NCBI GenBank assembly: GCA_041666145.1
Contig: JBAYHK010000001.1
Span: 67,810-131,809 of the forward strand
DNA: 64,000 nt
Direction of reading: 5' to 3'
DNA from: Patescibacteria group bacterium
Lineage (GTDB): Bacteria; Patescibacteriota; Patescibacteriia; UBA9934
Of the stretch, positions 5,140-64,000 are shown piece by piece. The position numbers were made by a program, and so were the translations under genes. Under the pieces are notes generated by a model, which saw only the letters and a list, made by a program, of their open reading frames with translations, had not been told where the DNA came from and did no database searches. Each line of letters opens with the position of its first letter. The first letter of the stretch is position 1.

Positions 5140-7079
5140 ACGGGCTTTTTCCGCTCAAGCGGAACATCAACTACCATCGGCTCAGGCTCACGCTTCTGTC
5201 GGTAATCAATCGGACGAACAGTCCGCTCTTCATATCCGGCCTTATTCGTAGTCACGAAATATTCGTTTGGACCAACAATGAAACTATACCGACCAAGCGC
5301 ATCAGAAATCGTTGATTCCACAAGTTTATTATACTTTGGTTCAAAGAGTCGAATGATCGCATTGCCCACAGGACGCCTTGTTTTCACATCATAAACAACG
5401 CCCCAACCTCGAGGCTTCTTTGGCCGAGCAAGGCGCCAGAATAAAATGAAAACTATAACCTGAAGAACAACGAGCCCGATGGTGAACAATGAGGGCGACA
5501 AGAAACAGGCAACAATGGAAAGAAACGAACCGGAAAGTGAAAAAACAAACTGTAATCTTCGCAAAAGCCTTCTACGGAAAATGTATTTTGGCTCTTGTAT
5601 TTTCTGATCTTGCGCAACGTCAAGCGGAATGTTCGCTGCAATCGTCGCGTCTCTATCAGTAACTTCAACAATTTGACCCGTATAGACATCAAGAAAAACG
5701 CCGTCATCCTTCACTCCAGTTAAATACGTACTCGGAAAAATAAATCCGTTTCTCGTAACGGCAACCCTATACTGTCCGGGGCTCGCAACGAAAAAATATT
5801 TTCCGTCAACGCCAGTAACCATTGAGTTCAAAAGGCGTCCTGTAGCAATATTGTATAAACGAACGATTGCAAGATCGACAGGAACTTTTGTCACCGCATT
5901 GTAAACAATACCAAAAGCCCTTCGTCTCCTACGAGAAATGAACAGGAATGGCGAAGTGAAAAGAAATTGCAAATACGAAAATAAATTAAACGACGTTGCA
6001 AGAATTGCTATTGTTGCGACCGCGGCAGCAAGCCCCAAGGGAACTGCAACATCTACTACTGCAGTTCTGATATCTAACAAAACACGATCTTCTTGCACTT
6101 CCTCTACAGTTACCGATTCTACTATCGGCGGCAGAGAAAGCTCTGGCTCTTCTGACTCAAAAATAGGCTCCTCTATTGGCAACACCGGAAGAACTTCTGT
6201 TCCCTCCTCTTTAACAACGTCAATAACCTCATTACCGACGTCTTCCAAAAAATCCTGTAAAACATCTGGAACGTAAGCACTGCCTTCAGAATTATCTGAA
6301 GGTGATTCCTCATAAAAGTTATCTGGCGGATAGCCAGGGACTTCCGGAACCACAGGAATCTCTGCTACAGGCTCTTCGTCTATTGGTACCTCTGGTACAA
6401 CAGGAACAACAGGAACCTCGGGCCCCTCATCCGATTCTTCTTCTGGAAATGGAACATATCCGCCGTCTGGGCGGTCTCCTCCACCGCCACCAGGAGACAA
6501 CTGGGTTGGCACAGTCGCACCAACCGTCGGTCCTCCAGTTGATGTTATCTCCAAAATAAGAGAACCATGATTTCCGATCAAACCACTTTCGCCTTCTTTT
6601 AGTTTTATAAAATAGGAATTCACCACTGACGGGTTTGTAATCCGGTTTATTCCGGAACCAAAAGTGTGAGCATTCGTTCCGACTTCAATAGTCACGACGC
6701 TTCCTGTCGCTATAGACCCCCCATCCCCAGCACATATTCCCAAGCTCAGATTCTGACCCGTGACTGTTACGGAAACATTATCAGACGCAAGGCAATCAGA
6801 AGCTGTTGTGAGTTGAATATAGTCATCTGCAATGTCAACGTCATCTTCGGTTATTGCCGCTAAGTCAAACCCCACAGGAAAGGTAAACAAGACGGAAGAT
6901 CCCTCGGGAATGTTCGTGACTGTAGTAAAAACAAATTTATGGTTTGATCCCATCGATGCCTGCATGCTCGTTGGCTGATCTGTAAAGTCTATAACGGTAG
7001 CAGCGAAAAGCTTACACGGAAAAAATGCGATAAAAATCGCAAAGAAGAAAATAACATTTTTAAAAATAATCCTCCGCAT
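5136..7079 (-). CDS. Membrane-anchored surface protein with Pro/Glu-rich linker and two carboxypeptidase-regulatory-like (CarboxypepD_reg / PEGA-like) domains
   Basis: Signal peptide MRRIIFKNVIFFFAIFIAFF. Linker PEVPVVPVVPEVP. Two TM segments, each followed by the pattern G.VY...T..PV..A.V.L.......T..DG.Y.F....G.Y.V...K.G. Confidence 0.7.
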   Translation of the reverse strand: MRRIIFKNVIFFFAIFIAFFPCKLFAATVIDFTDQPTSMQASMGSNHKFVFTTVTNIPEGSSVLFTFPVGFDLAAITEDDVDIADDYIQLTTASDCLASDNVSVTVTGQNLSLGICAGDGGSIATGSVVTIEVGTNAHTFGSGINRITNPSVVNSYFIKLKEGESGLIGNHGSLILEITSTGGPTVGATVPTQLSPGGGGGDRPDGGYVPFPEEESDEGPEVPVVPVVPEVPIDEEPVAEIPVVPEVPGYPPDNFYEESPSDNSEGSAYVPDVLQDFLEDVGNEVIDVVKEEGTEVLPVLPIEEPIFESEEPELSLPPIVESVTVEEVQEDRVLLDIRTAVVDVAVPLGLAAAVATIAILATSFNLFSYLQFLFTSPFLFISRRRRRAFGIVYNAVTKVPVDLAIVRLYNIATGRLLNSMVTGVDGKYFFVASPGQYRVAVTRNGFIFPSTYLTGVKDDGVFLDVYTGQIVEVTDRDATIAANIPLDVAQDQKIQEPKYIFRRRLLRRLQFVFSLSGSFLSIVACFLSPSLFTIGLVVLQVIVFILFWRLARPKKPRGWGVVYDVKTRRPVGNAIIRLFEPKYNKLVESTISDALGRYSFIVGPNEYFVTTNKAGYEERTVRPIDYRQKREPEPMVVDVPLERKKPV

Positions 7080-8833: not shown

Positions 8834-9018
8834 AATCTTAGCCGTTCTCTATAAACTCCATAATGCGTCATGTGAGAATTGAAAACAACGCAAAAGAACA
8901 CACTCTGTGGATAAAGTATGGATATCCCTGTTTATATTCGGTGTCTATGTTAATAATACATATTTGTCTACACCTTTGTAGACAAACTTATTCGATGAAA
9001 TCGGAGTTTATCAACAAG

Positions 9019-9032
9019 GTTTCACGTGAAAC
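9019..9032. promoter_or_regulatory. parS: parS site 1 (perfect palindrome GTTTCACGTGAAAC; matches ParB-binding consensus tGTTNCACGTGAAACa)
   Basis: Exact 14 bp palindrome, extended gGTTTCACGTGAAACat. Confidence 0.7.
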
Positions 9033-9243
9033 ATCGAAAATATAACTCTCTCTCCGGCCTTGCAGCCGGGGTTTCTCGTGCTAATCGATCGTTCGTTCTC
9101 GCTACTCATCTTGAAGCGAGCTCGAATGGAGACTGCATCCTCGACCTAACGGTACGAGGCTTTACGCTGGACGAATAAAAACTAAACGAGAAATCCAGGA
9201 GCAAAATTGCCCTAAGGCGCCATTTTCACAAATCCTAAAAACT

Positions 9244-9257
9244 GTTTCACGTGAAAC
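9244..9257. promoter_or_regulatory. parS: parS site 2 (TGTTTCACGTGAAACA)
   Basis: Exact 16 bp match to the firmicute-type parS consensus. Confidence 0.7.
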
Positions 9258-9466
9258 ATTAAAATCGGATGACGGCAAATCTCTAGACGGCAAACCAATT
9301 CAAAAATCTCCTTTTAAGGGTTTTCCTCGCAGCTTGCTGCGTTTCCACTCTTAGGCAGAAGAAGCTAATCAATTGAGCCCCGATGCCTCGCCGAAGCTCT
9401 GCGAGGGCACAGCTTGCTGCGAGGAGGTTCATCGATAATTTCCGAACAAATCAATTCAACCCATTT

Positions 9467-9480
9467 TGTTTCACGTGAAA
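9467..9480. promoter_or_regulatory. parS: parS site 3 (core of 22 bp perfect palindrome TTTTGTTTCACGTGAAACAAAA)
   Basis: Exact palindrome lying between an intergenic spacer and the tRNA-Ala 3' end. Confidence 0.7.
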
Positions 9481-9512
9481 CAAAACACCCGCACTTTACA
9501 TGCGGGTGTTTT

Positions 9513-9588
9513 GTGGTGGACCTGAGCGGATTCGAACCGCTGGCCTCTGCAATGCGAATGCAGCGCTCTACCAACTGAGCTACAGGCC
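9513..9588 (-). tRNA. tRNA-Ala (anticodon CGC)
   Basis: Reverse complement reads GGGCCTGTAGCTCAGTTGGTAGAGCGCTGCATTCGCATTGCAGAGGCCAGCGGTTCGAATCCGCTCAGGTCCACCA. G3:U70 Ala identity pair, cloverleaf folds cleanly, CCA encoded. Confidence 0.9.
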
Positions 9589-9684
9589 CAAATTTTGACC
9601 TTAGGCGAGATTTAAATCTCGAACTCCTTTCTTTTTCAGAACCAAATCTGAAAATCAATAGTCTCGAAGCCCATTCCAAGATAT

Positions 9685-9698
9685 GTTTCACGTGAAAC
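9685..9698. promoter_or_regulatory. parS: parS site 4 (core of 22 bp perfect palindrome ATATGTTTCACGTGAAACATAT)
   Basis: Exact palindrome between tRNA-Ala and tRNA-Arg. Confidence 0.7.
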
Positions 9699-9745
9699 AT
9701 ATCTTTACATCCAATTCTTCAACTAAAAAATTTCAGATCAAAACC

Positions 9746-15772: not shown

Positions 15773-15980
15773 CAACTCGAGCGTGTTCGGCAAGGAACAG
15801 AAAAGAGCGCCCCGGCGCCATTCTGCTCCTGCCGGATGCGCTCTTTTCTTTTGAGCTGATTCACTTCTCATTTCCCAAAAAAACTGCTAAACTCTCCCGG
15901 AAAAGAAAGTCGGTGCCGTGTGGCAAAAGGTATTAAGTTTGGTTAGCGACTACGAGGCTAACCAAACTTGGATACCTTTT

Positions 15981-16057
15981 GCCCTGGTAGCTCAGTTGGA
16001 TAGAGCAGGGGACTTCTAGGCCCAAGGTCAGTGGTTCGATTCCACTCCAGGGCACCA
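15981..16057 (+). tRNA. tRNA-Arg (anticodon TCT) with a defective anticodon stem (only 3 Watson-Crick pairs); possibly a pseudo-tRNA
   Basis: GCCCTGGTAGCTCAGTTGGATAGAGCAGGGGACTTCTAGGCCCAAGGTCAGTGGTTCGATTCCACTCCAGGGCACCA. Perfect acceptor, D and T arms. Anticodon arm GGGGA/CTTCTAG/GCCCA has mismatched terminal pairs. Confidence 0.6.
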
Positions 16058-16104
16058 GACTTTCTACACAAACAAAAAACCTCCCGAATAGGGAGATTTT
16101 TTAA

Positions 16105-16179
16105 TGGGGCGACTAACGGGGATCGAACCCGTGTAGCCGGGACCACAACCCGGTGCTCTACCATTGAGCTATAGCCGCC
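16105..16179 (-). tRNA. tRNA-His (anticodon GTG) with encoded G-1
   Basis: Reverse complement reads G-GCGGCTATAGCTCAATGGTAGAGCACCGGGTTGTGGTCCCGGCTACACGGGTTCGATCCCCGTTAGTCGCCCCA. Extra 5' G pairs with discriminator C. Terminator hairpin aaaaacctcccgaatagggagatttttt lies between this and the convergent tRNA-Arg. Confidence 0.85.
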
Positions 16180-16224
16180 ACAATCGTCGAACGAACGGCA
16201 AAATACCACGAACAATACACTCAA

Positions 16225-17199
16225 TCAAGCTTTTGTAGCTCCTTTGTCATGAAACTTCTGATGAACTCTCTTCAATTCTTTATCCGTAACATGCGTATAA
16301 ACCTGTGTCGTAGTAATCGACTCATGGCCAAGGAGCGACTGGACAGAGCGAATATCGGCGCCATTTCGGAGAAGATCGGTAGCAAAAGTGTGACGAAGGG
16401 TATGAGGGGTGACAGGTTTCGTAATGCCGGCAAGTCGCGCGTAGCGGTCAACAATACGCTGCACCGATCGAGGAGTAAGCGGAGCCGCTTCTGGTGCCTG
16501 ATTCTTTGCTCGATCGTGACGAACAAAAAGAAACTGCGAAACGTCATGACGGTGATCGATATAAGCTTTCAGGGCTCGCTTCGCTGCGTCGGAAACAAAA
16601 ACAATTCTGTGCTTGCTTCCTTTTCCTTTGATTGTGAATTCATCACGTTTTAAGTTCACTTGTTCTATCAGAAGCCCTGCACATTCAGAAACACGAAGAC
16701 CCGTTGAAAACAAAAGTTCAAGGATCGCCTTGTCGCGCAGTCCAACGATCGTTTCATCTTCACTCGGCCCAGACAAGAATCGAGCAAGCTCTTCTGGTTC
16801 AAGAAACATCACGTGACGTGATCCTTGTTTTGCGAGTTCGATTTTATCTGCAGAAAGCGTCTTTATGTCTCGTTTTGCAAGATATTTCAAGAATGCTCGA
16901 AGAGCGATGAGATGATAGTTCTGTGTGTTTTTCTGCAGCGACTCTTCATCTCTTCCCGCGATTTCGCGATTCAAATACAGCCGATACTTTCGAACCATCT
17001 CTAGTGTTATTTCTCCCGGATTTGGGTCTTTTGCCCAAGTAGCAAATCGATCGAGATAGAAATGATAGTTCCGCGTGGTTTTTTCACTCCTTCCGCGCTC
17101 AATCTCAAGATACTCACAAAATTCCTTCATTAACGTTCGCATTCCCTTTGCCATATTCTCTATTGTACCGCTTTTGCGACACAAAGTAGACGAAGCCAT
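16225..17199 (-). CDS. Tyrosine site-specific recombinase, XerC/XerD family (probable start at internal Met near 17154)
   Basis: N-terminal SAM-like core-binding domain (FCEYLEIERGRSEKTTRNYHFYLDRF). C-terminal catalytic motifs HTLRHTFATDLL and LLGHESITTTQVYTHV. Confidence 0.85.
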   Translation of the reverse strand: MASSTLCRKSGTIENMAKGMRTLMKEFCEYLEIERGRSEKTTRNYHFYLDRFATWAKDPNPGEITLEMVRKYRLYLNREIAGRDEESLQKNTQNYHLIALRAFLKYLAKRDIKTLSADKIELAKQGSRHVMFLEPEELARFLSGPSEDETIVGLRDKAILELLFSTGLRVSECAGLLIEQVNLKRDEFTIKGKGSKHRIVFVSDAAKRALKAYIDHRHDVSQFLFVRHDRAKNQAPEAAPLTPRSVQRIVDRYARLAGITKPVTPHTLRHTFATDLLRNGADIRSVQSLLGHESITTTQVYTHVTDKELKRVHQKFHDKGATKA

Positions 17200-17280
17200 T
17201 GATCAATATAGGCATTTTGTGCTAATCTCATCCGTCCTCATGACTCCAACATACAACACGAACAGAGAAAGGAAGGAACA

Positions 17281-17685
17281 TTGGGAGAAAAGACCATTGT
17301 CACCCATGAGCTTTATAAAGAAAGGCGCGTGGCTATCTTTTCCGGCGTAAAGCTCAACAACCACAACGGAATAGTCAGAATAGGAATACAAAGAGTCACT
17401 CAAGACAAACTCTGTGGCATAAGAATACTCGCCCCGGGCTGCAGCAAGGAACATGACATCGCCTTCGAAAAAGTAAGAATTGATCGCGGACTAATCGACG
17501 GAAGGTGCCACTTCGACCTAACCGGAGCCAAAAACCTCGATGACCCATACACCTGGGCGATTAACTTCATTGGAACGCTTGTCTTCTGTATAAAAGATGG
17601 TGAAATAGCAGCAAAATTCACTATCTTTAGAACAGAGTTCTGGCTTAAAAGTCCAGAATTTGAAGAGTTCTTGGCCCGGACCTGA
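17281..17685 (+). CDS. Hypothetical protein
   Basis: 134 aa ORF between the integrase and the toxin-antitoxin pair. No motif recognised. Confidence 0.4.
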   Translation: MGEKTIVTHELYKERRVAIFSGVKLNNHNGIVRIGIQRVTQDKLCGIRILAPGCSKEHDIAFEKVRIDRGLIDGRCHFDLTGAKNLDDPYTWAINFIGTLVFCIKDGEIAAKFTIFRTEFWLKSPEFEEFLART

Positions 17686-17792
17686 TCCTGTGACAAGCGA
17701 GGAAGTGCGGGGAAATAAAATCCACCGTCACAACGCAACGCGTCCAACTGCAGAAGCTACTACGGCTTCACGGTCTGGGCGCGTTTCTGTTT

Positions 17793-18128
17793 TTAAGAAA
17801 GGTCTGACATTCCGAAAATTTGATGGAGATTTTGATGAATTGTTTTACGATATTGATCTTCGACAGTTCCGATTCGACCGATGGCACAGCGAGTATCAAG
17901 TGTAGAAAGTTTTGAAAGGCAGAGAACGGAATCTACTCGTAAGCCGTTTTCTTCAGACTTCAGAATGCTCACATCAAACTCGCCAATCTTTTTCACCTTC
18001 GACGTCAAAAATGCCACCACCATGTCTCCCTGTTTTTCGTCAACGAATAAGACGAGCGCCGGTCGAACTTTCTGGCCAGAAAGATCGGAAAAGGGAAATG
18101 GAGTCAGTACAATGTCCCACCTAAACAT
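17793..18128 (-). CDS. Type II toxin, PemK/MazF-family mRNA interferase
   Basis: Characteristic PemK-like segment VRPALVLFVDEKQGDMVVAFLTSKV. 111 aa. Start overlaps the stop of the upstream antitoxin. Confidence 0.75.
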   Translation of the reverse strand: MFRWDIVLTPFPFSDLSGQKVRPALVLFVDEKQGDMVVAFLTSKVKKIGEFDVSILKSEENGLRVDSVLCLSKLSTLDTRCAIGRIGTVEDQYRKTIHQNLHQIFGMSDLS

Positions 18129-28979: not shown

Positions 28980-29186
28980 CTAATTTAGAGGAGTTGTTTT
29001 AGAAACAAGACCCGCGATACCAATTTGCAGGACCAAGAGCCCGAAAACTGGCAAGGACACGGATACGCATCCAAAAGACGCGATACTAGTTGATACGTCT
29101 CTTGGATCATAGACCCAGGAGCAGAAGATAAACGCGGCTAATCCAAGAAACACTAACGCCCAAAAACCGATTCTCTTGACCGTCAC
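28980..29186 (-). CDS. Small two-TM membrane protein, cassette-array paralog 1 (68 aa)
   Basis: Start codon, basic N-terminus, two hydrophobic helices. RBS agagaggtg upstream. Paralogous to the next three ORFs. Confidence 0.6.
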   Translation of the reverse strand: MTVKRIGFWALVFLGLAAFIFCSWVYDPRDVSTSIASFGCVSVSLPVFGLLVLQIGIAGLVSKTTPLN

Positions 29187-29471
29187 TATTCACCTCTCTT
29201 TTCATTACGAAGCTTGGTGGTTGTTTTCAGATCAAGCGCATCTTCGCAGTTTGTGCTTGAACGGGGAATAATGGCACAAATTAGCCAAAAGAACAAGACG
29301 ACGATTTGGGTGAAATATTGATCAGTTCCCAGAAGATTTCATGTTTGAGCTTACCGTAAACGAGTTGGAATCTTAAGGTGCCAAATTGGTACCTCAAGTT
29401 GGGGCGGTCAACGATTGCTCATTGATGATTCAGAAAAGCCGAAAATCGGTTTCAAGAAAAGATAATCAAAC

Positions 29472-29500
29472 GGCCCCGGCTCTCGCGTAGAGTCGGGGCC
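29472..29500. terminator. Terminator hairpin copy 2 (GGCCCCGGCTCtcgcgtaGAGTCGGGGCC)
   Basis: Near-identical to copy 1, immediately 3' of the minus-strand small ORF 29545..29739. Confidence 0.75.
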
Positions 29501-29544
29501 GTGAGTTTTTTGGGCGTGCCGAAGGCCTCAATGGAAACCCTGAC

Positions 29545-29739
29545 TCATCTCCTTGGGGGGGAAAGGCAGAAACCCAAAAGACCAACAGCGATGCCCATGA
29601 GTCCGCCGAAAATGCCGATTACTCTCGTAACAAAGATCACCGCTGCATCAGAACTACCTACTGGCTCGTAAAAAGCGAAAGATACGAGCAACACGAGCCC
29701 AAAAAGAATCACCAGCAAATAACGGAATCTTCGACTCAC
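29545..29739 (-). CDS. Small two-TM membrane protein, cassette-array paralog 2 (64 aa)
   Basis: MSRRFRYLLVILFGLVLLVSFAFYEPVGSSDAAVIFVTRVIGIFGGLMGIAVGLLGFCLSPPRR. Confidence 0.6.
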   Translation of the reverse strand: MSRRFRYLLVILFGLVLLVSFAFYEPVGSSDAAVIFVTRVIGIFGGLMGIAVGLLGFCLSPPRR

Positions 29740-29876
29740 AGTTCACCTCTCTCTTTCCACGGAGTTTGAAGGTTATTTTCAATTCAAGCCCATCTCCGTA
29801 GTTTGTGCTTGAACGAGGAATAATGGCACAAGTTAGCCAAAAGAACAAGGCTAAAATCATTCGAATGACATCAAAC

Positions 29877-29905
29877 GGCTCCGACTCTCGTGTAGAGTTG
29901 GGGCC
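29877..29905. terminator. Terminator hairpin copy 3 (GGCTCCGACTCtcgtgtaGAGTTGGGGCC)
   Basis: Same hairpin with compensatory C/T and T/G changes, 3' of ORF 29952..30143. Also forms the 3' end of a conserved plus-strand 27-codon ORF (29823..29909, MAQVSQKNKAKIIRMTSNGSDSRVELGP). Confidence 0.75.
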
Positions 29906-29951
29906 GTGAGTTTTTTGAAGCGTTTCGAATCTCTCGATAAGCACCCTGACC

Positions 29952-30143
29952 CTATCTTCTCGAACGAAACAGGCCGAAAAGGCCAACGGCAATGCCTACC
30001 AGCGAACTGAAGACGCCGAATACTTGCACGACATACATCGTCGCCACATCAGCCGAGCCATCTTTTGGCCCATAAAAACCAAAGAAGATAAGACACGCCA
30101 ATCCGCAAAGAATCAGCAACAAAGAACGGATTCCTCTAAACAT
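29952..30143 (-). CDS. Small two-TM membrane protein, cassette-array paralog 3 (63 aa)
   Basis: MFRGIRSLLLILCGLACLIFFGFYGPKDGSADVATMYVVQVFGVFSSLVGIAVGLFGLFRSRR, about 50% identical to paralog 2. Confidence 0.6.
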   Translation of the reverse strand: MFRGIRSLLLILCGLACLIFFGFYGPKDGSADVATMYVVQVFGVFSSLVGIAVGLFGLFRSRR

Positions 30144-37920: not shown

Positions 37921-38012
37921 TCGTCATTGCGAGGAAGGTAATCCTGACGAAGCGATCCAGGCCAGGCTCACATAAAGATTGCTTCGTTAGGATTACCTTC
38001 CTCGCAATGGCT
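37921..38012. repeat. REP/MITE-like element copy A: 29 bp inverted repeat CATTGCGAGGAAGGTAATCCTGACGAAGC / GCTTCGTTAGGATTACCTTCCTCGCAATG with 27 nt spacer
   Basis: Seen directly. The same about 40 bp motif recurs at 52401 and 60240, always just after a terminator. Confidence 0.7.
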
Positions 38013-57785: not shown

Positions 57786-57906
57786 CGGACGCTTGATTTG
57801 CAACAAAACGACCTATTAAAAGGTCGTTTTGTTGCCGAACATTTGTCGTTCTTTTTGTTATTTTAGCTCCGTGAGCGATCCCCAACATAGCGCTAAGAGT
57901 GAGGTG

Positions 57907-58000
57907 GGATGGCGGTGCCTATGGGTTTAGTATCAGAATCTCGAGAGTTTTTTGAGGATTTTTCGAATCTTTGTTGAGCGACGATTTTGAGGCACGTAGT
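57907..58000. repeat. Dispersed ~95 bp repeat R1 (GGATGGCGGTGCCTATGGGTTTAGTATCAGAAT...GATTTTGAGGCACGTAG)
   Basis: Related copies at 62066..62160 and 63374..63470. Confidence 0.6.
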
Positions 58001-58004
58001 TTAG

Positions 58005-58583: not shown

Positions 58584-58713
58584 AGCGATTCTATTTTACC
58601 TCAACAAAACAACCCTACGGAGGGTTATTTTACTCATCACTTTTACTCATTGTTCGCGCTCGGAGCTTCGGGGGACCATCCCCCATAGCCCGACAAAGTC
58701 GGGCGACGGGGGA

Positions 58714-58804
58714 TGGCGGAGAGGGAGGGATTCGAACCCTCGATACCCTTTCGGATATACATGATTTCGAGTCATGCGCGTTCGACCAGCTCTGCCACCT
58801 CTCC
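58714..58804 (-). tRNA. tRNA-Ser (anticodon CGA), long variable arm
   Basis: Reverse complement reads GGAGAGGTGGCAGAGCTGGTCGAACGCGCATGACTCGAAATCATGTATATCCGAAAGGGTATCGAGGGTTCGAATCCCTCCCTCTCCGCCA. Confidence 0.85.
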
Positions 58805-60189: not shown

Positions 60190-60239
60190 GTAATTGATTA
60201 CGATGAAAAATACAGCTCTACATTTGAGCTGTATTTTTT

Positions 60240-60280
60240 GTCATTGCGAGGACGGTAATCCAGACGAAGCAATCTTGGTT
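60240..60280. repeat. REP/MITE-like element copy C (GTCATTGCGAGGACGGTAATCCAGACGAAGCAATCTTGGTT), single arm
   Basis: Follows terminator aatacagctctacatttgagctgtatttttt. Confidence 0.65.
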
Positions 60281-61955: not shown

Positions 61956-62065
61956 TCTTGAGAATATACGCCGTGTACATATATTTTGTCATGATAACAA
62001 AACACCCCCTTTCGGAGGCTATGAACTTGTTCCTCTTCGCTCCTCGCTTGCGCTCAGAGCTCCGG

Positions 62066-62160
62066 GGGATGGCGGTGTCAGCGGGTTTGGCACTGGATTT
62101 ACGAAGGTCTTTGAAGGAGTTTTCGACGGCTTCTCTTTGAATGATTTTGAGGCATGTGGG
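62066..62160. repeat. Dispersed repeat R2 (direct-orientation copy immediately upstream of gene 62141..63211)
   Basis: GGATGGCGGTGTCAGCGGGTTTGGCACTGGATTT...GATTTTGAGGCATGTGGG. Confidence 0.6.
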
Positions 62161-63211
62161 TCGGAGGATGTTGCGACATCGTCGTGGTACGATTTATAAA
62201 ATTATTGTGGTGTTTATGAAAATTGGAGAATTTGGTAGCGAATCAAAAGACGGAGGAATGGCGGAAGCTGAACGATGTGAATTTCGCGTCTGGGAGAGTT
62301 TACGTACAGAATCCGCGCGACGCGAATATGAGGCGCTAACGGAAGAAGAGAGGGCGTATATTAACGGAGCATCGGACGTACTCGCGAATCATGCTCTGGA
62401 CATTACTTTTTTCAGTAAGCCTATTGGCGGGTATGTAGATCCAAGAGTATCGAAAACCCCACCCGAATATAACTGGTCGATTAATTTAGGAGACGGGGGG
62501 CATGATCGGAGCATTGTTGATGCCGTAAAATTGTATCGAAAACGAGAGCAAACTCTTGATCCAACCCTGAGAGATCTTCTTGGCAGCAAGCTGCGTTGCA
62601 ACACAGTCTTTATTCTTGGACTTCCCACTTTGACAGATTTTGGACGTTCGGAAGATGATCCACGTTACCAGTCATATAAAGCGTCTTCAAAAGATGAGGC
62701 AATCGTATTGGCAAAGTTGGCTGCTCCGCCTGGATCGCTTGCAAATATTCAAGAGGAAACACGTGGTGTATTCGCTGATTTTTCCTTGCGTGTAAGATAT
62801 CCTGTCGAAGTGCAGAATATTTTTCTCAGTAAAGAGAATGCGTACTTACTCCATTTTGTTCTCCAGCACGCTGCCATGAAATTTGATCCGGCATACACGG
62901 TATATTTTGACGGATCCTTATCGGGAGAAAAGATGTTCGGAGCGGAAAAAGAAGGTCCCACGATCGTTGTTGTAGATGAAATCAAAATGAAAGTTCTCTC
63001 AGGCGAGGAGCGGAAACCGGCAAAAAGGAATGGATCACGTACCGTGGGAGAGATGTATGAACATATTGCACCGATGGTATCAAGCGGAAGGGCACAGAGC
63101 TTTGCTCCTTGGGTTTGGCAAACGAATAGAGGAAAATTCGACTCCGCTGCACGAGAACGGGCGAACGAATATCCTCGTCCTCCAATCGGTCCGGCAGACA
63201 CAAAAAAGTAG
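62141..63211 (+). CDS. Hypothetical protein flanked by direct repeats R2/R3 (probable start at internal Met ~62216)
   Basis: 356 aa ORF. No motif recognised. Confidence 0.45.
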   Translation: MILRHVGRRMLRHRRGTIYKIIVVFMKIGEFGSESKDGGMAEAERCEFRVWESLRTESARREYEALTEEERAYINGASDVLANHALDITFFSKPIGGYVDPRVSKTPPEYNWSINLGDGGHDRSIVDAVKLYRKREQTLDPTLRDLLGSKLRCNTVFILGLPTLTDFGRSEDDPRYQSYKASSKDEAIVLAKLAAPPGSLANIQEETRGVFADFSLRVRYPVEVQNIFLSKENAYLLHFVLQHAAMKFDPAYTVYFDGSLSGEKMFGAEKEGPTIVVVDEIKMKVLSGEERKPAKRNGSRTVGEMYEHIAPMVSSGRAQSFAPWVWQTNRGKFDSAARERANEYPRPPIGPADTKK

Positions 63212-63373
63212 AGCGCGTGAGCATCAATGATTTCGTGCGAAACTTATCGGAAGATGAGCGTCCAGGTGTACACAAAGCAAAACAACCCCGAAAAGGGTTG
63301 TTTTGTAATCGACAAGGCCCTATTGGTCGCGCCGTGTGCTTGAGGTACTCGGGTTGTCCGATAAGACGTTCTC

Positions 63374-63470
63374 GTGGCGGTGTCTGTGGGTTTAGTACCA
63401 AAATTATACCGAACCTTGAATAGGTTTTTGAAGATTCTCACTTTGGCGATTTTTAGGCAGACGGGTTTGT
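63374..63470. repeat. Dispersed repeat R3 (direct-orientation copy immediately downstream of gene 62141..63211)
   Basis: GTGGCGGTGTCTGTGGGTTTAGTACCAAAATT...GATTTTTAGGCAGACGGG. Confidence 0.6.
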
Positions 63471-63488
63471 GACATTGGTATGACATTC

Positions 63489-63965
63489 TCAACCAGTCGT
63501 GGAATTCTTTTTAACGCCCGAAATGAAATAGTCTTCCAATTTTTTTTTGAAGCTTCCAAAATCTATCTCTTCGCTAAGAGGGAATCTTAGAAGCTCAATT
63601 CTGGAACCGGCCTCTTCGGCCTCTATGACAATCTCGCTACCGCTTGTATAGGCAGTAAACCTTGGATAAAACTCCAAATAACCAAGAGCGTTAAAGAGCC
63701 CGAGCCCATTTGTGTACTTTCGATTTTTTGTATCGATGCCATAGCCGCCTTGTTTAGTAGAGAAGGTGACTGGTTTTAACAAAGCTACAACTTGAGCAAG
63801 AACCTCTTTGATAGCCGCGTCTATCTTTTCAAATAACGCGATTAGGTCTTGCAAATATTTATAATCGTGGCGTTGTTGAATTTGGATTTTTAAATCCCCC
63901 AGTTTTTCACCCGCATCCATATTCTCTTTTGGTGTTTTGGCTGTCGCAACATTCGCCAGCTCCAT
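63489..63965 (-). CDS. Hypothetical protein
   Basis: 158 aa ORF. No motif recognised. Confidence 0.4.
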   Translation of the reverse strand: MELANVATAKTPKENMDAGEKLGDLKIQIQQRHDYKYLQDLIALFEKIDAAIKEVLAQVVALLKPVTFSTKQGGYGIDTKNRKYTNGLGLFNALGYLEFYPRFTAYTSGSEIVIEAEEAGSRIELLRFPLSEEIDFGSFKKKLEDYFISGVKKNSTTG

Positions 63966-64000
63966 TTTTAATGACTCAATGGTCTGCCACCTGTCATTTA

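Follow-up and report, generated by a model that had tools for sequence, protein, structure and literature searches.

The window analysed here, a 64,000-nt stretch of the genome of an uncultured Uhrbacteria member (Patescibacteria), contains two arrays in which three copies of a 95-bp repeat, termed R, stand together with single genes, terminators and tRNA genes (Table 1). Read on the plus strand, array 1 consists of trailer B'', R1, a membrane-protein gene on the minus strand, a terminator, trailer B' and tRNA-Ser(CGA). Array 2 runs from trailer B through R2, the orphan gene gene331, a terminator, trailer A, R3, a kinase gene on the minus strand and a further terminator to tRNA-Ser(TGA), and is followed by galU. 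The two arrays are separated by the segment from TspO to a DprA-like gene, and base composition does not set their units apart. Sequence past the window end was taken from L013 (GCA_041660465.1, JBAZWH010000004.1), the contig containing the window, for which the window coordinate equals the L013 coordinate + 52215. On this contig, the 158-aa open reading frame at the window end is the C-terminus of the 428-aa kinase.

Table 1 Features of the two R-containing arrays (window coordinates unless stated otherwise).
Feature	Position	Strand	Description
Trailer B'' (flank of R1)	57803-57909	-	begins tcccac..ctcttagcgc, B-like; bidirectional terminator 57803-57832
R1	57910-58004	+	95-bp repeat copy; 72.3 bits (sequence-only covariance model)
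Membrane protein, 192 aa	58005-58583	-	cargo of the tRNA-Ser(CGA)-R1 unit; no Pfam match
Trailer B'	58605-58713	-	tRNA-Ser(CGA) 3' trailer and terminator; homologous to R2 flank, more weakly to R1 flank
tRNA-Ser(CGA)	58714-58804	-	3' end CCGCCA, common to the end of every R
Trailer B (R2 flank)	62004-62069	-	minus-strand terminator 62004-62019; resembles the tRNA-Ser(CGA) trailer
R2	62070-62164	+	95-bp repeat copy; left boundary of single-gene unit; 78.6 bits (sequence-only covariance model)
gene331, orphan hypothetical protein	62216-63211	+	cargo of R2 unit; 331 aa (347 aa from start 62168)
Trailer A and bidirectional terminator (63277-63306)	63277-63374	-	after R3 on the minus strand; nhmmer match 63278-63374, E = 3.5e-22
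R3	63375-63469	+	95-bp repeat copy; opens next, tRNA-proximal unit with kinase gene; 76.4 bits
Ser/Thr kinase, 428 aa, 3' part in window	63489-64000	-	cargo of R3 unit; full gene L013 11274-12560
tRNA-Ser(TGA)	64819-64906 (window-equivalent, past window end)		L013 12604-12691; precedes kinase gene

The initial annotation had described three related sequences of about 95 bp, and these are real: all three lie on the plus strand and align with one another without gaps over 95 nt. A degenerate 20-nt pattern of the 5' block (GGCGGTGYCNNNGGGTTTRG, at most three mismatches) has three matches, which are exactly R1, R2 and R3, compared with 0.19 expected by chance. The 3' block (GATTTTKAGGCA) hits the same three sites and one chance match with one mismatch. 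A sequence-only covariance model built from eight copies found no fourth R, either within the 64 kb of the window or over the next 10 kb of the contig. R1 lies between a TrmB-like gene and the membrane-protein gene, as had been stated; on the minus strand it directly follows the latter and ends ...GGCACCGCCA. R2 is indeed situated just upstream of gene331, the gene that R2 and R3 had been said to flank. The gene start previously given at 62141 was not upheld; it is spurious, owing to a frame that stays open across R2, and gene callers place the start at 62168 or 62216. R3 begins 164 nt past the stop codon, behind the terminator and a conserved 68-nt trailer. The gene331 product has no Pfam domain and falls in only two protein clusters among 5.8 billion sequences (one other cluster of relatives).

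R consists of three conserved blocks separated by two variable stretches. Mean identity is 82% at positions 1-25, 71% at positions 42-57 and 79% at positions 74-95, and it is 48% and 37% in the intervening positions 26-41 and 58-73. Pairwise identity among R1, R2 and R3 amounts to 58-63%, while each of them is 69-76% identical to copies of other genomes. Since the window copies are nearer to those of other genomes than to one another, separate acquisitions rather than local duplication are indicated.

Pattern scans of public collections revealed R in three Candidatus Uhrbacteria metagenome-assembled genomes (L002, L006, L007) and in four metagenome contigs (L009, L010, L011/L012), of which L011/L012 represent the same sequence as L007 and were not counted as separate copies. 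In addition, the same neighbourhood was fetched from further relatives using galU as an anchor (galU protein 77-88% identical to that of the window); here, L016 carries two copies and L017 one divergent copy. Altogether, 11 distinct copies from about nine genomes are available, three from the window and eight further ones, all exactly 95 nt long and in register. In the collections searched, the eight further copies occur in Candidatus Uhrbacteria genomes, relatives with the galU locus or unassigned metagenome contigs, and nowhere else. Viral contigs gave no match with the two-block pattern, and BLAST found nothing in phage and plasmid records. A looser pattern returned only chance or coding matches, and the hits of the initial pattern scan in Planctomycetaceae, Nitrosomonas and Opitutaceae are most likely of this kind as well (one inspected). 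Presence/absence variation, which the initial annotation had proposed looking for in the flanked gene, was found for R: in five galU-anchored relatives (L015, L018, L019, L022, L024), which are not isogenic with the window, the tRNA-Ser/galU region is present and R is absent, even with search filters switched off.

At its junction end, each R carries TGGCGG, the reverse complement of the tRNA-Ser 3' end CCGCCA, and the conservation of all 11 copies stops exactly there. On the minus strand, every R ends ...ACAGACACCGCCA, conservation ceasing at the final A, and the tRNA-Ser(CGA) gene of the window ends ...CCTCTCCGCCA. The resemblance of the first bases of the repeat to a tRNA-Ser 3' end, already mentioned in the initial annotation, is real and proved to be the key feature. 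Over the 25 nt at the junction end, R matches the reverse-complemented 3' end of tRNA-Ser(CGA) at 17/25 positions and those of other tRNAs at 12-15/25; outside the hexamer (positions 7-25) the match to tRNA-Ser(CGA) is 11/19, a value reached by 0.2% of random 19-mers from the window. Only CCGCCA is identical between R and the tRNA 3' end, and about 25 nt are tRNA-like. We rejected R as a tRNA pseudogene: it is seen neither by ARAGORN nor by the tRNA covariance model, and the likeness is confined to the last ~25 nt.

Seven loci extend far enough to show the surroundings of R. In every one of them, R has the same orientation as a tRNA gene ending in CCGCCA and lies 0.5-4.7 kb beyond the 3' end of that gene, with unrelated genes in between. 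These loci are the two of the window (R1 with tRNA-Ser(CGA); R2 and R3 with tRNA-Ser(TGA)) and those of L006, L010, L016, L017 and L007, the last with tRNA-Asp.

Past the TGGCGG junction, the sequence is interchangeable across genomes between R and tRNA-Ser genes, and in one case tRNA-Asp. One example is trailer A, a trailer of ~95 nt with its terminator. It adjoins R in the window (R3), L002, L017 and L007, where an insertion of ~80 nt splits it; it follows tRNA-Ser(CGA) in L010, L015 and L016 and tRNA-Ser(TGA) in L017. The window copy also aligns with the trailers of L010, L006 and L002, and an HMM search with trailer A found no copy other than beside R or tRNA-Ser. R3 and the tRNA-Ser(CGA) of L015 even share the first 14 nt past the junction (cgagaacgtcttat) without a difference. 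Similarly, the R2 flank aligns with the trailer of the window tRNA-Ser(CGA) at a score of 35 (null maximum 24), and the R flank of L009 shares 81% identity, with compensatory changes in the stem, with the terminator behind a tRNA-Asp gene of L012, a gene that likewise ends in CCGCCA. In L006, trailer A and the 3' end of tRNA-Ser are separated by a scar-like R remnant of ~35 nt. Two unrelated heads thus share the same tails at a single point with 6 bp in common, which is a signature of site-specific recombination and not of duplication or homologous exchange. Trailer A stands next to R in some loci and next to tRNA genes in others. It behaves like host as well as element sequence, and assigning it to either leaves some loci unexplained.

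Comparison of the loci further revealed a recurrent unit, composed of R, one or more genes, a bidirectional terminator and trailer A up to the next TGGCGG. Its cargo differs from genome to genome: a 99-aa gene in L006, a 268-aa gene in L017, two genes in L010, and a large serine recombinase together with a glycosyltransferase in L016. In the latter genome, the tRNA-proximal unit runs from copy Rb over 272 nt to the recombinase and glycosyltransferase genes, the terminator and trailer A, which abuts tRNA-Ser(CGA); a unit with copy Ra and a NUDIX gene lies outside it and is read as older. The L016 recombinase (L016 5441-6757) is full-length, with Resolvase, Recombinase and Zn_ribbon_recom domains, and the closest phage integrases are less than 30% identical to it. 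L002 carries a truncated homologue of 73% identity, without the catalytic domain, at a distance of 165 nt from its R. Integration at tRNA 3' ends is, as far as is known, uncommon for large serine recombinases. Neither the 64-kb window nor the 10 kb beyond it (L013) contains a serine recombinase homologue; the units of the window can at best be non-autonomous or decayed. The sole recombinase in this range, a Xer-like tyrosine enzyme, lies at a distance of 41 kb. On the downstream side of galU, the same gene order is kept in all relatives (a solute-binding protein gene, then five pilin genes), whereas the pgi-galU region upstream is hypervariable and different in every relative examined.

On balance, these comparative data suggest that R is probably the conserved arm of an att-type site belonging to small integrative elements of Uhrbacteria, which would insert at the CCGCCA end of tRNA-Ser genes. 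The copies are most likely attachment-site remnants of a serine-recombinase mobile element, and not an RNA gene or a regulatory leader. According to the proposed mechanism, the elements would insert at the extreme 3' end of tRNA-Ser, occasionally tRNA-Asp, and a unit on the plus strand would comprise R, its gene or genes, a bidirectional terminator and a trailer, ending at the next TGGCGG, be it another R or a tRNA 3' end. L016 would represent the autonomous form, with the recombinase gene just downstream of R, and this enzyme, together with its L002 relative, is likely the one acting on R, with strand crossover presumably taking place at the TGGCGG junction. The units stacked in the two arrays of the window would be decayed or limited to cargo, and may once have been mobile on their own. 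Each new insertion at the tRNA would push older units outward, and the R copies left behind would be the direct repeats at the edges of single-gene 'cassettes'.

The att-like boundaries considered in the initial annotation are accordingly borne out in part. The sharp TGGCGG junction, the flanks swapped between R and tRNA genes, a common architecture with varying cargo, the recombinase in L016 and the absence of R from relatives all speak for such boundaries. The cassette does not stand free between two R copies, however; 62070-63374 belongs, as a single unit, to a tandem array whose anchor is the tRNA-Ser(TGA) gene just outside the window. Taking junction, flank exchange, tRNA link, cargo, recombinase and patchy presence together, R2-gene331-R3 is best read as a cargo-only unit of this array. 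Against the att-type reading stand the lack of a serine recombinase in the window and the ambiguous place of trailer A; moreover, the sequences compared showed no empty site in an otherwise identical strain, no circular junction and no excision product. Three further observations do not fit. First, the junction lacks the imperfect dyad symmetry typical of att sites of large serine recombinases; the sole symmetry noted about it on inspection is AGAC(N14)GTCT, a 4-bp pair 7 nt to each side, the outer motifs being direct and not inverted. Second, an att site of 40-50 bp leaves the conservation of 95 bp in three blocks with fixed spacing unexplained. Third, the trailers on both sides of the window R1 unit, and likewise of the L016 Ra unit, resemble each other, a pattern not expected from a simple attP x attB event.

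R could also be an independent small non-coding RNA gene whose flanks became tRNA-Ser-like through duplication of the locus or gene conversion, which we consider unlikely. Two versions are conceivable, namely a minus-strand transcript ending in CCGCCA with a tRNA-Ser trailer and terminator, or a G/U-rich small RNA from the plus strand. An intrinsic terminator within 0-80 nt after most copies on the minus strand would suit the former, and a weak closing stem (GGUGUC/GAGGCA), whose U-G pairs are workable on the plus strand only, the latter; the fixed length and the conserved blocks of R agree with both. However, Rfam gave no match to R at gathering thresholds or at E <= 10, returning tRNAs only, and single-sequence folding was no better than that of shuffled sequences (z-scores -1.3 to +2.0). 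The consensus fold weakens with added copies, from -9.2 kcal/mol with three to -5.9 with eight and -1.5 with 11, and contains no compensatory pair at 11 copies; explicit pair counting on the best candidate structure did not exceed column-shuffle and slide controls. Three divergent copies break the closing stem, and no structure is predicted on the minus strand. Moreover, R is missing from half of the close relatives, and R copies from a single genome have their closest relatives elsewhere. Duplication also fails to explain a sharp junction at which the gene bodies are unrelated and the trailers shared.

A rather unlikely variant of a recombinational origin is that R forms a complete, res-like site with several sub-sites, at which a large serine recombinase supplied in trans would bring single-gene units into and out of arrays that are anchored on tRNA 3' ends, the tRNA end serving as a pseudo-site. 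The motif GGGTT/GGGTC occurs as direct repeats in trailer A, the R 5' block and the R 3' block, and it has changed in concert in the L016b/L017 lineage. This recurrence and concerted change hint at a multi-site protein-DNA complex and leave room for such a cassette-shuffling system.

The same motif repeats and their concerted change, together with the three blocks at fixed spacing and the lack of a recombinase in most units, would also fit a non-mobile chromosomal module bound by protein, for example a boundary element or a site of the res or iteron type, that happens to lie in a tRNA-Ser region prone to recombination. Here, the flank exchange would be due to homologous or illegitimate recombination in common trailers and terminators. 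We regard this as quite improbable: the exchange always occurs exactly at TGGCGG, where the 6 bp in common are too short for homologous recombination, a recombinase gene accompanies R in two genomes, and the patchy presence and cross-genome similarity of R are typical of horizontally moving DNA.

The initial annotation had offered a shared leader or regulatory RNA as its other explanation, and a function as cis-regulatory 5' leader or riboswitch is now very improbable, being largely refuted by the gene contexts. Only four of the 11 copies (R2, L006-R, L017-R and L016-Rb) are followed, at a distance of 52-272 nt, by a gene in the same orientation; those genes are mutually unrelated, and a convergent gene points its 3' end towards six of the 11 copies. 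The only promoter predicted 5' of gene331 (GCGACA-18-TAAAAT, 9/12) is located downstream of R2, and the failure of R to show a consensus structure, covariation, folding beyond shuffles or an Rfam match counts against any such RNA. Hardly credible, finally, is a gene, or gene remnant, for a small conserved peptide (AVSVGLVP.L.GSLKGF...ILRHVGR): the copies lack indels, several variable positions of the conserved blocks share one codon phase and six of eight copies begin with ATG, GTG or TTG, but two begin with CTG, R1, R2, L007, L016b and L017 have in-frame stops, all six frames are interrupted in several copies, the codon-phase entropy difference is small (0.79 vs 0.60), and the peptide profile has no match among 5.8 billion protein sequences.

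CPR bacteria (Patescibacteria) have tiny genomes with few characterised mobile elements, and their acquisition of accessory genes is poorly understood. The observation of the R arrays is sound and biologically coherent, and the mobility proposed for their units is putative. The boundary sequence, in combination with tRNA-Ser 3' ends and serine recombinases, offers a searchable marker for genomic islands of Patescibacteria, and R with the L016 recombinase represents a candidate new pair of recombinase and att site. The arrays also offer an explanation for the hypervariable pgi-galU region. If the single-gene units were individually mobile, they would constitute a cassette-exchange system distinct from integrons; if the res-like reading were true, the small CPR genomes would possess a counterpart of the integron cassette system that is driven by a serine recombinase.

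Integron, MITE, riboswitch and known RNA can all be dismissed as descriptions of the array. R does resemble integron arrays (IntI, attI, attC) in its single-gene units, sites of ~60-140 bp, conserved ends with a variable middle and one anchoring primary site. In contrast to integrons, there is no integron integrase near R, R is not an imperfect palindrome, contains no inverted repeat and lacks RYYYAAC/GTTRRRY core sites, and each cargo gene of its units has a promoter and a terminator of its own, with both orientations occurring. A MITE or insertion sequence was rejected on the grounds that R has no terminal inverted repeats, occurs as three clustered copies in 74 kb and never forms a simple 95-bp insertion. 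The res sites of Tn3 and gamma-delta would be comparable in their ~100-120 bp, three sub-sites at fixed spacing, location beside the recombinase gene and use of direct copies as substrate. Their sub-sites are inverted-repeat dimers served by a small recombinase, whereas R has short direct motifs and the associated enzyme is large. With the attP/attB systems of large serine recombinases (phiC31, Bxb1, A118, SCCmec Ccr), the locus shares the Resolvase, Recombinase and Zn-ribbon architecture of the L016 enzyme, the presumed attP-type junction (trailer/R) directly upstream of its gene and a sharp junction with few bases common to the target. The sites of those enzymes measure 40-50 bp and have imperfect dyad symmetry around a central dinucleotide, while no such symmetry was found here and the conserved unit spans 95 bp plus a trailer of ~70 nt.

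The closest known analogues are tRNA-anchored genomic islands that grow by tandem accretion, including cargo-only derivatives of the CIME type and tycheposons. The tycheposons of Prochlorococcus are tRNA-anchored, including at tRNA-Ser(TGA), and a minority of them use a large serine recombinase (bioRxiv 10.1101/2020.12.28.424599). In common with the R arrays, these islands show insertion at tRNA 3' ends, direct repeats bounding the units, an outward push of older units, fragmented recombinase genes, cargo-only units and hypervariability between close relatives. They differ in that R is not a plain partial tRNA: six nucleotides are identical, ~25 nt are tRNA-like, and 70 element-specific nucleotides follow at fixed spacing. 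Furthermore, the R units are very small (one or two genes, 4 kb in the autonomous form), have no replication module, reside in a CPR host and are only putatively mobile. The principle of tandem accretion is already known, and the locus described here would extend it to a CPR lineage and to an unusual, composite boundary sequence.

A conserved sequence of about 65 nt, trailer A, extends to the terminator from the CCA of tRNA-Ser or from R, the 95-bp repeat family. It is partly self-complementary (TATCGGACAA ... TTGTCGAT) and could either be a structure used in tRNA 3' processing or make up one half of the recombination site. Trailer A and R share the motif set GGGTT / GGGTT / GGGTC, with one site in trailer A (as reverse complement) and two in R (positions 14-18 and 89-93), one in each end block of the repeat. 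In the lineage represented by the related loci L016 and L017, this set is replaced by GCGTT / GCGTT / GAGTC, and the change is concerted over three directly repeated sites.

Coordinates of the recombinase gene, tandem paralogues, trailer A copies and changed motif sets
Feature	Locus	Position	Strand	Remark
Xer-like tyrosine recombinase	window	16225-17196	-	Phage_integrase and SAM-like N-terminal domains
Three tandem paralogous genes	window	28980-30143	-	~63-68-aa proteins
Trailer A	window	63307-63374		
Trailer A	L010	11078-11174		
Trailer A	L016	9044-9141		
Trailer A, two copies	L017	7358-7460 and 6252-6348		
Trailer A	L015	5439-5535		
Changed motif set	L016	5074-5168		R
Changed motif set	L016	9044-9141		trailer
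Changed motif set	L017	6252-6443		

The sole recombinase identified in the window, which was scanned against Pfam in part, is the Xer-like tyrosine recombinase. Its gene adjoins genes for tRNA-His and tRNA-Arg and is separated from the R repeats by 41 kb.

In the related locus L012, trailer A behind R is split by a palindromic, GAGCGAGCG-rich sequence of about 80 nt (6431-6515). GAGCG-rich stretches resembling this insert were also observed in trailer B, the other flank type, in the window (62020-62069 and 58640-58713) and in the tRNA-Ser trailers of two further loci, L018 and L022. The GAGCGAGCG-rich sequence may represent a small MITE/REP family with tRNA trailers as its target; if so, this would weaken the earlier argument that R and tRNA-Ser share trailer-B-like flanks through recombination at TGGCGG.

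Other palindromes occur in the window. A hairpin with 33-nt arms (CATTGCGAGGAAGGTAATCCTGACGAAGCGATC and its complement, 94% paired; 37925-38009) has a half-copy (~90%) at 60236-60276, within the variable tRNA-Ser region, and may be a REP-like palindromic repeat. The palindrome TGTTTCACGTGAAACAT, present three times in 700 bp (9007-9700) adjoining genes for tRNA-Ala and tRNA-Arg, looks like an operator. Furthermore, the three tandem paralogues, which repeat with a period of 405-561 nt and whose products look like two-transmembrane proteins, each have a strong GC-rich hairpin (AAACGGCCCCGACTCTCG...) behind them.

On the downstream side of galU, a solute-binding protein gene precedes five tandem T4SS_pilin-family genes (L013, the window's own contig, 15794-17814), whose order is kept in all galU-anchored relatives, in marked contrast with the upstream side, which is variable. 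In L010 (5664-9102), galU and an mgtE-like gene are segmentally duplicated. The extra galU fragment (55 aa) is 96% identical to galU of the related locus L006, whereas the full L010 copy is 75% identical; this difference suggests that DNA from an L006-like lineage was recently imported beside R.
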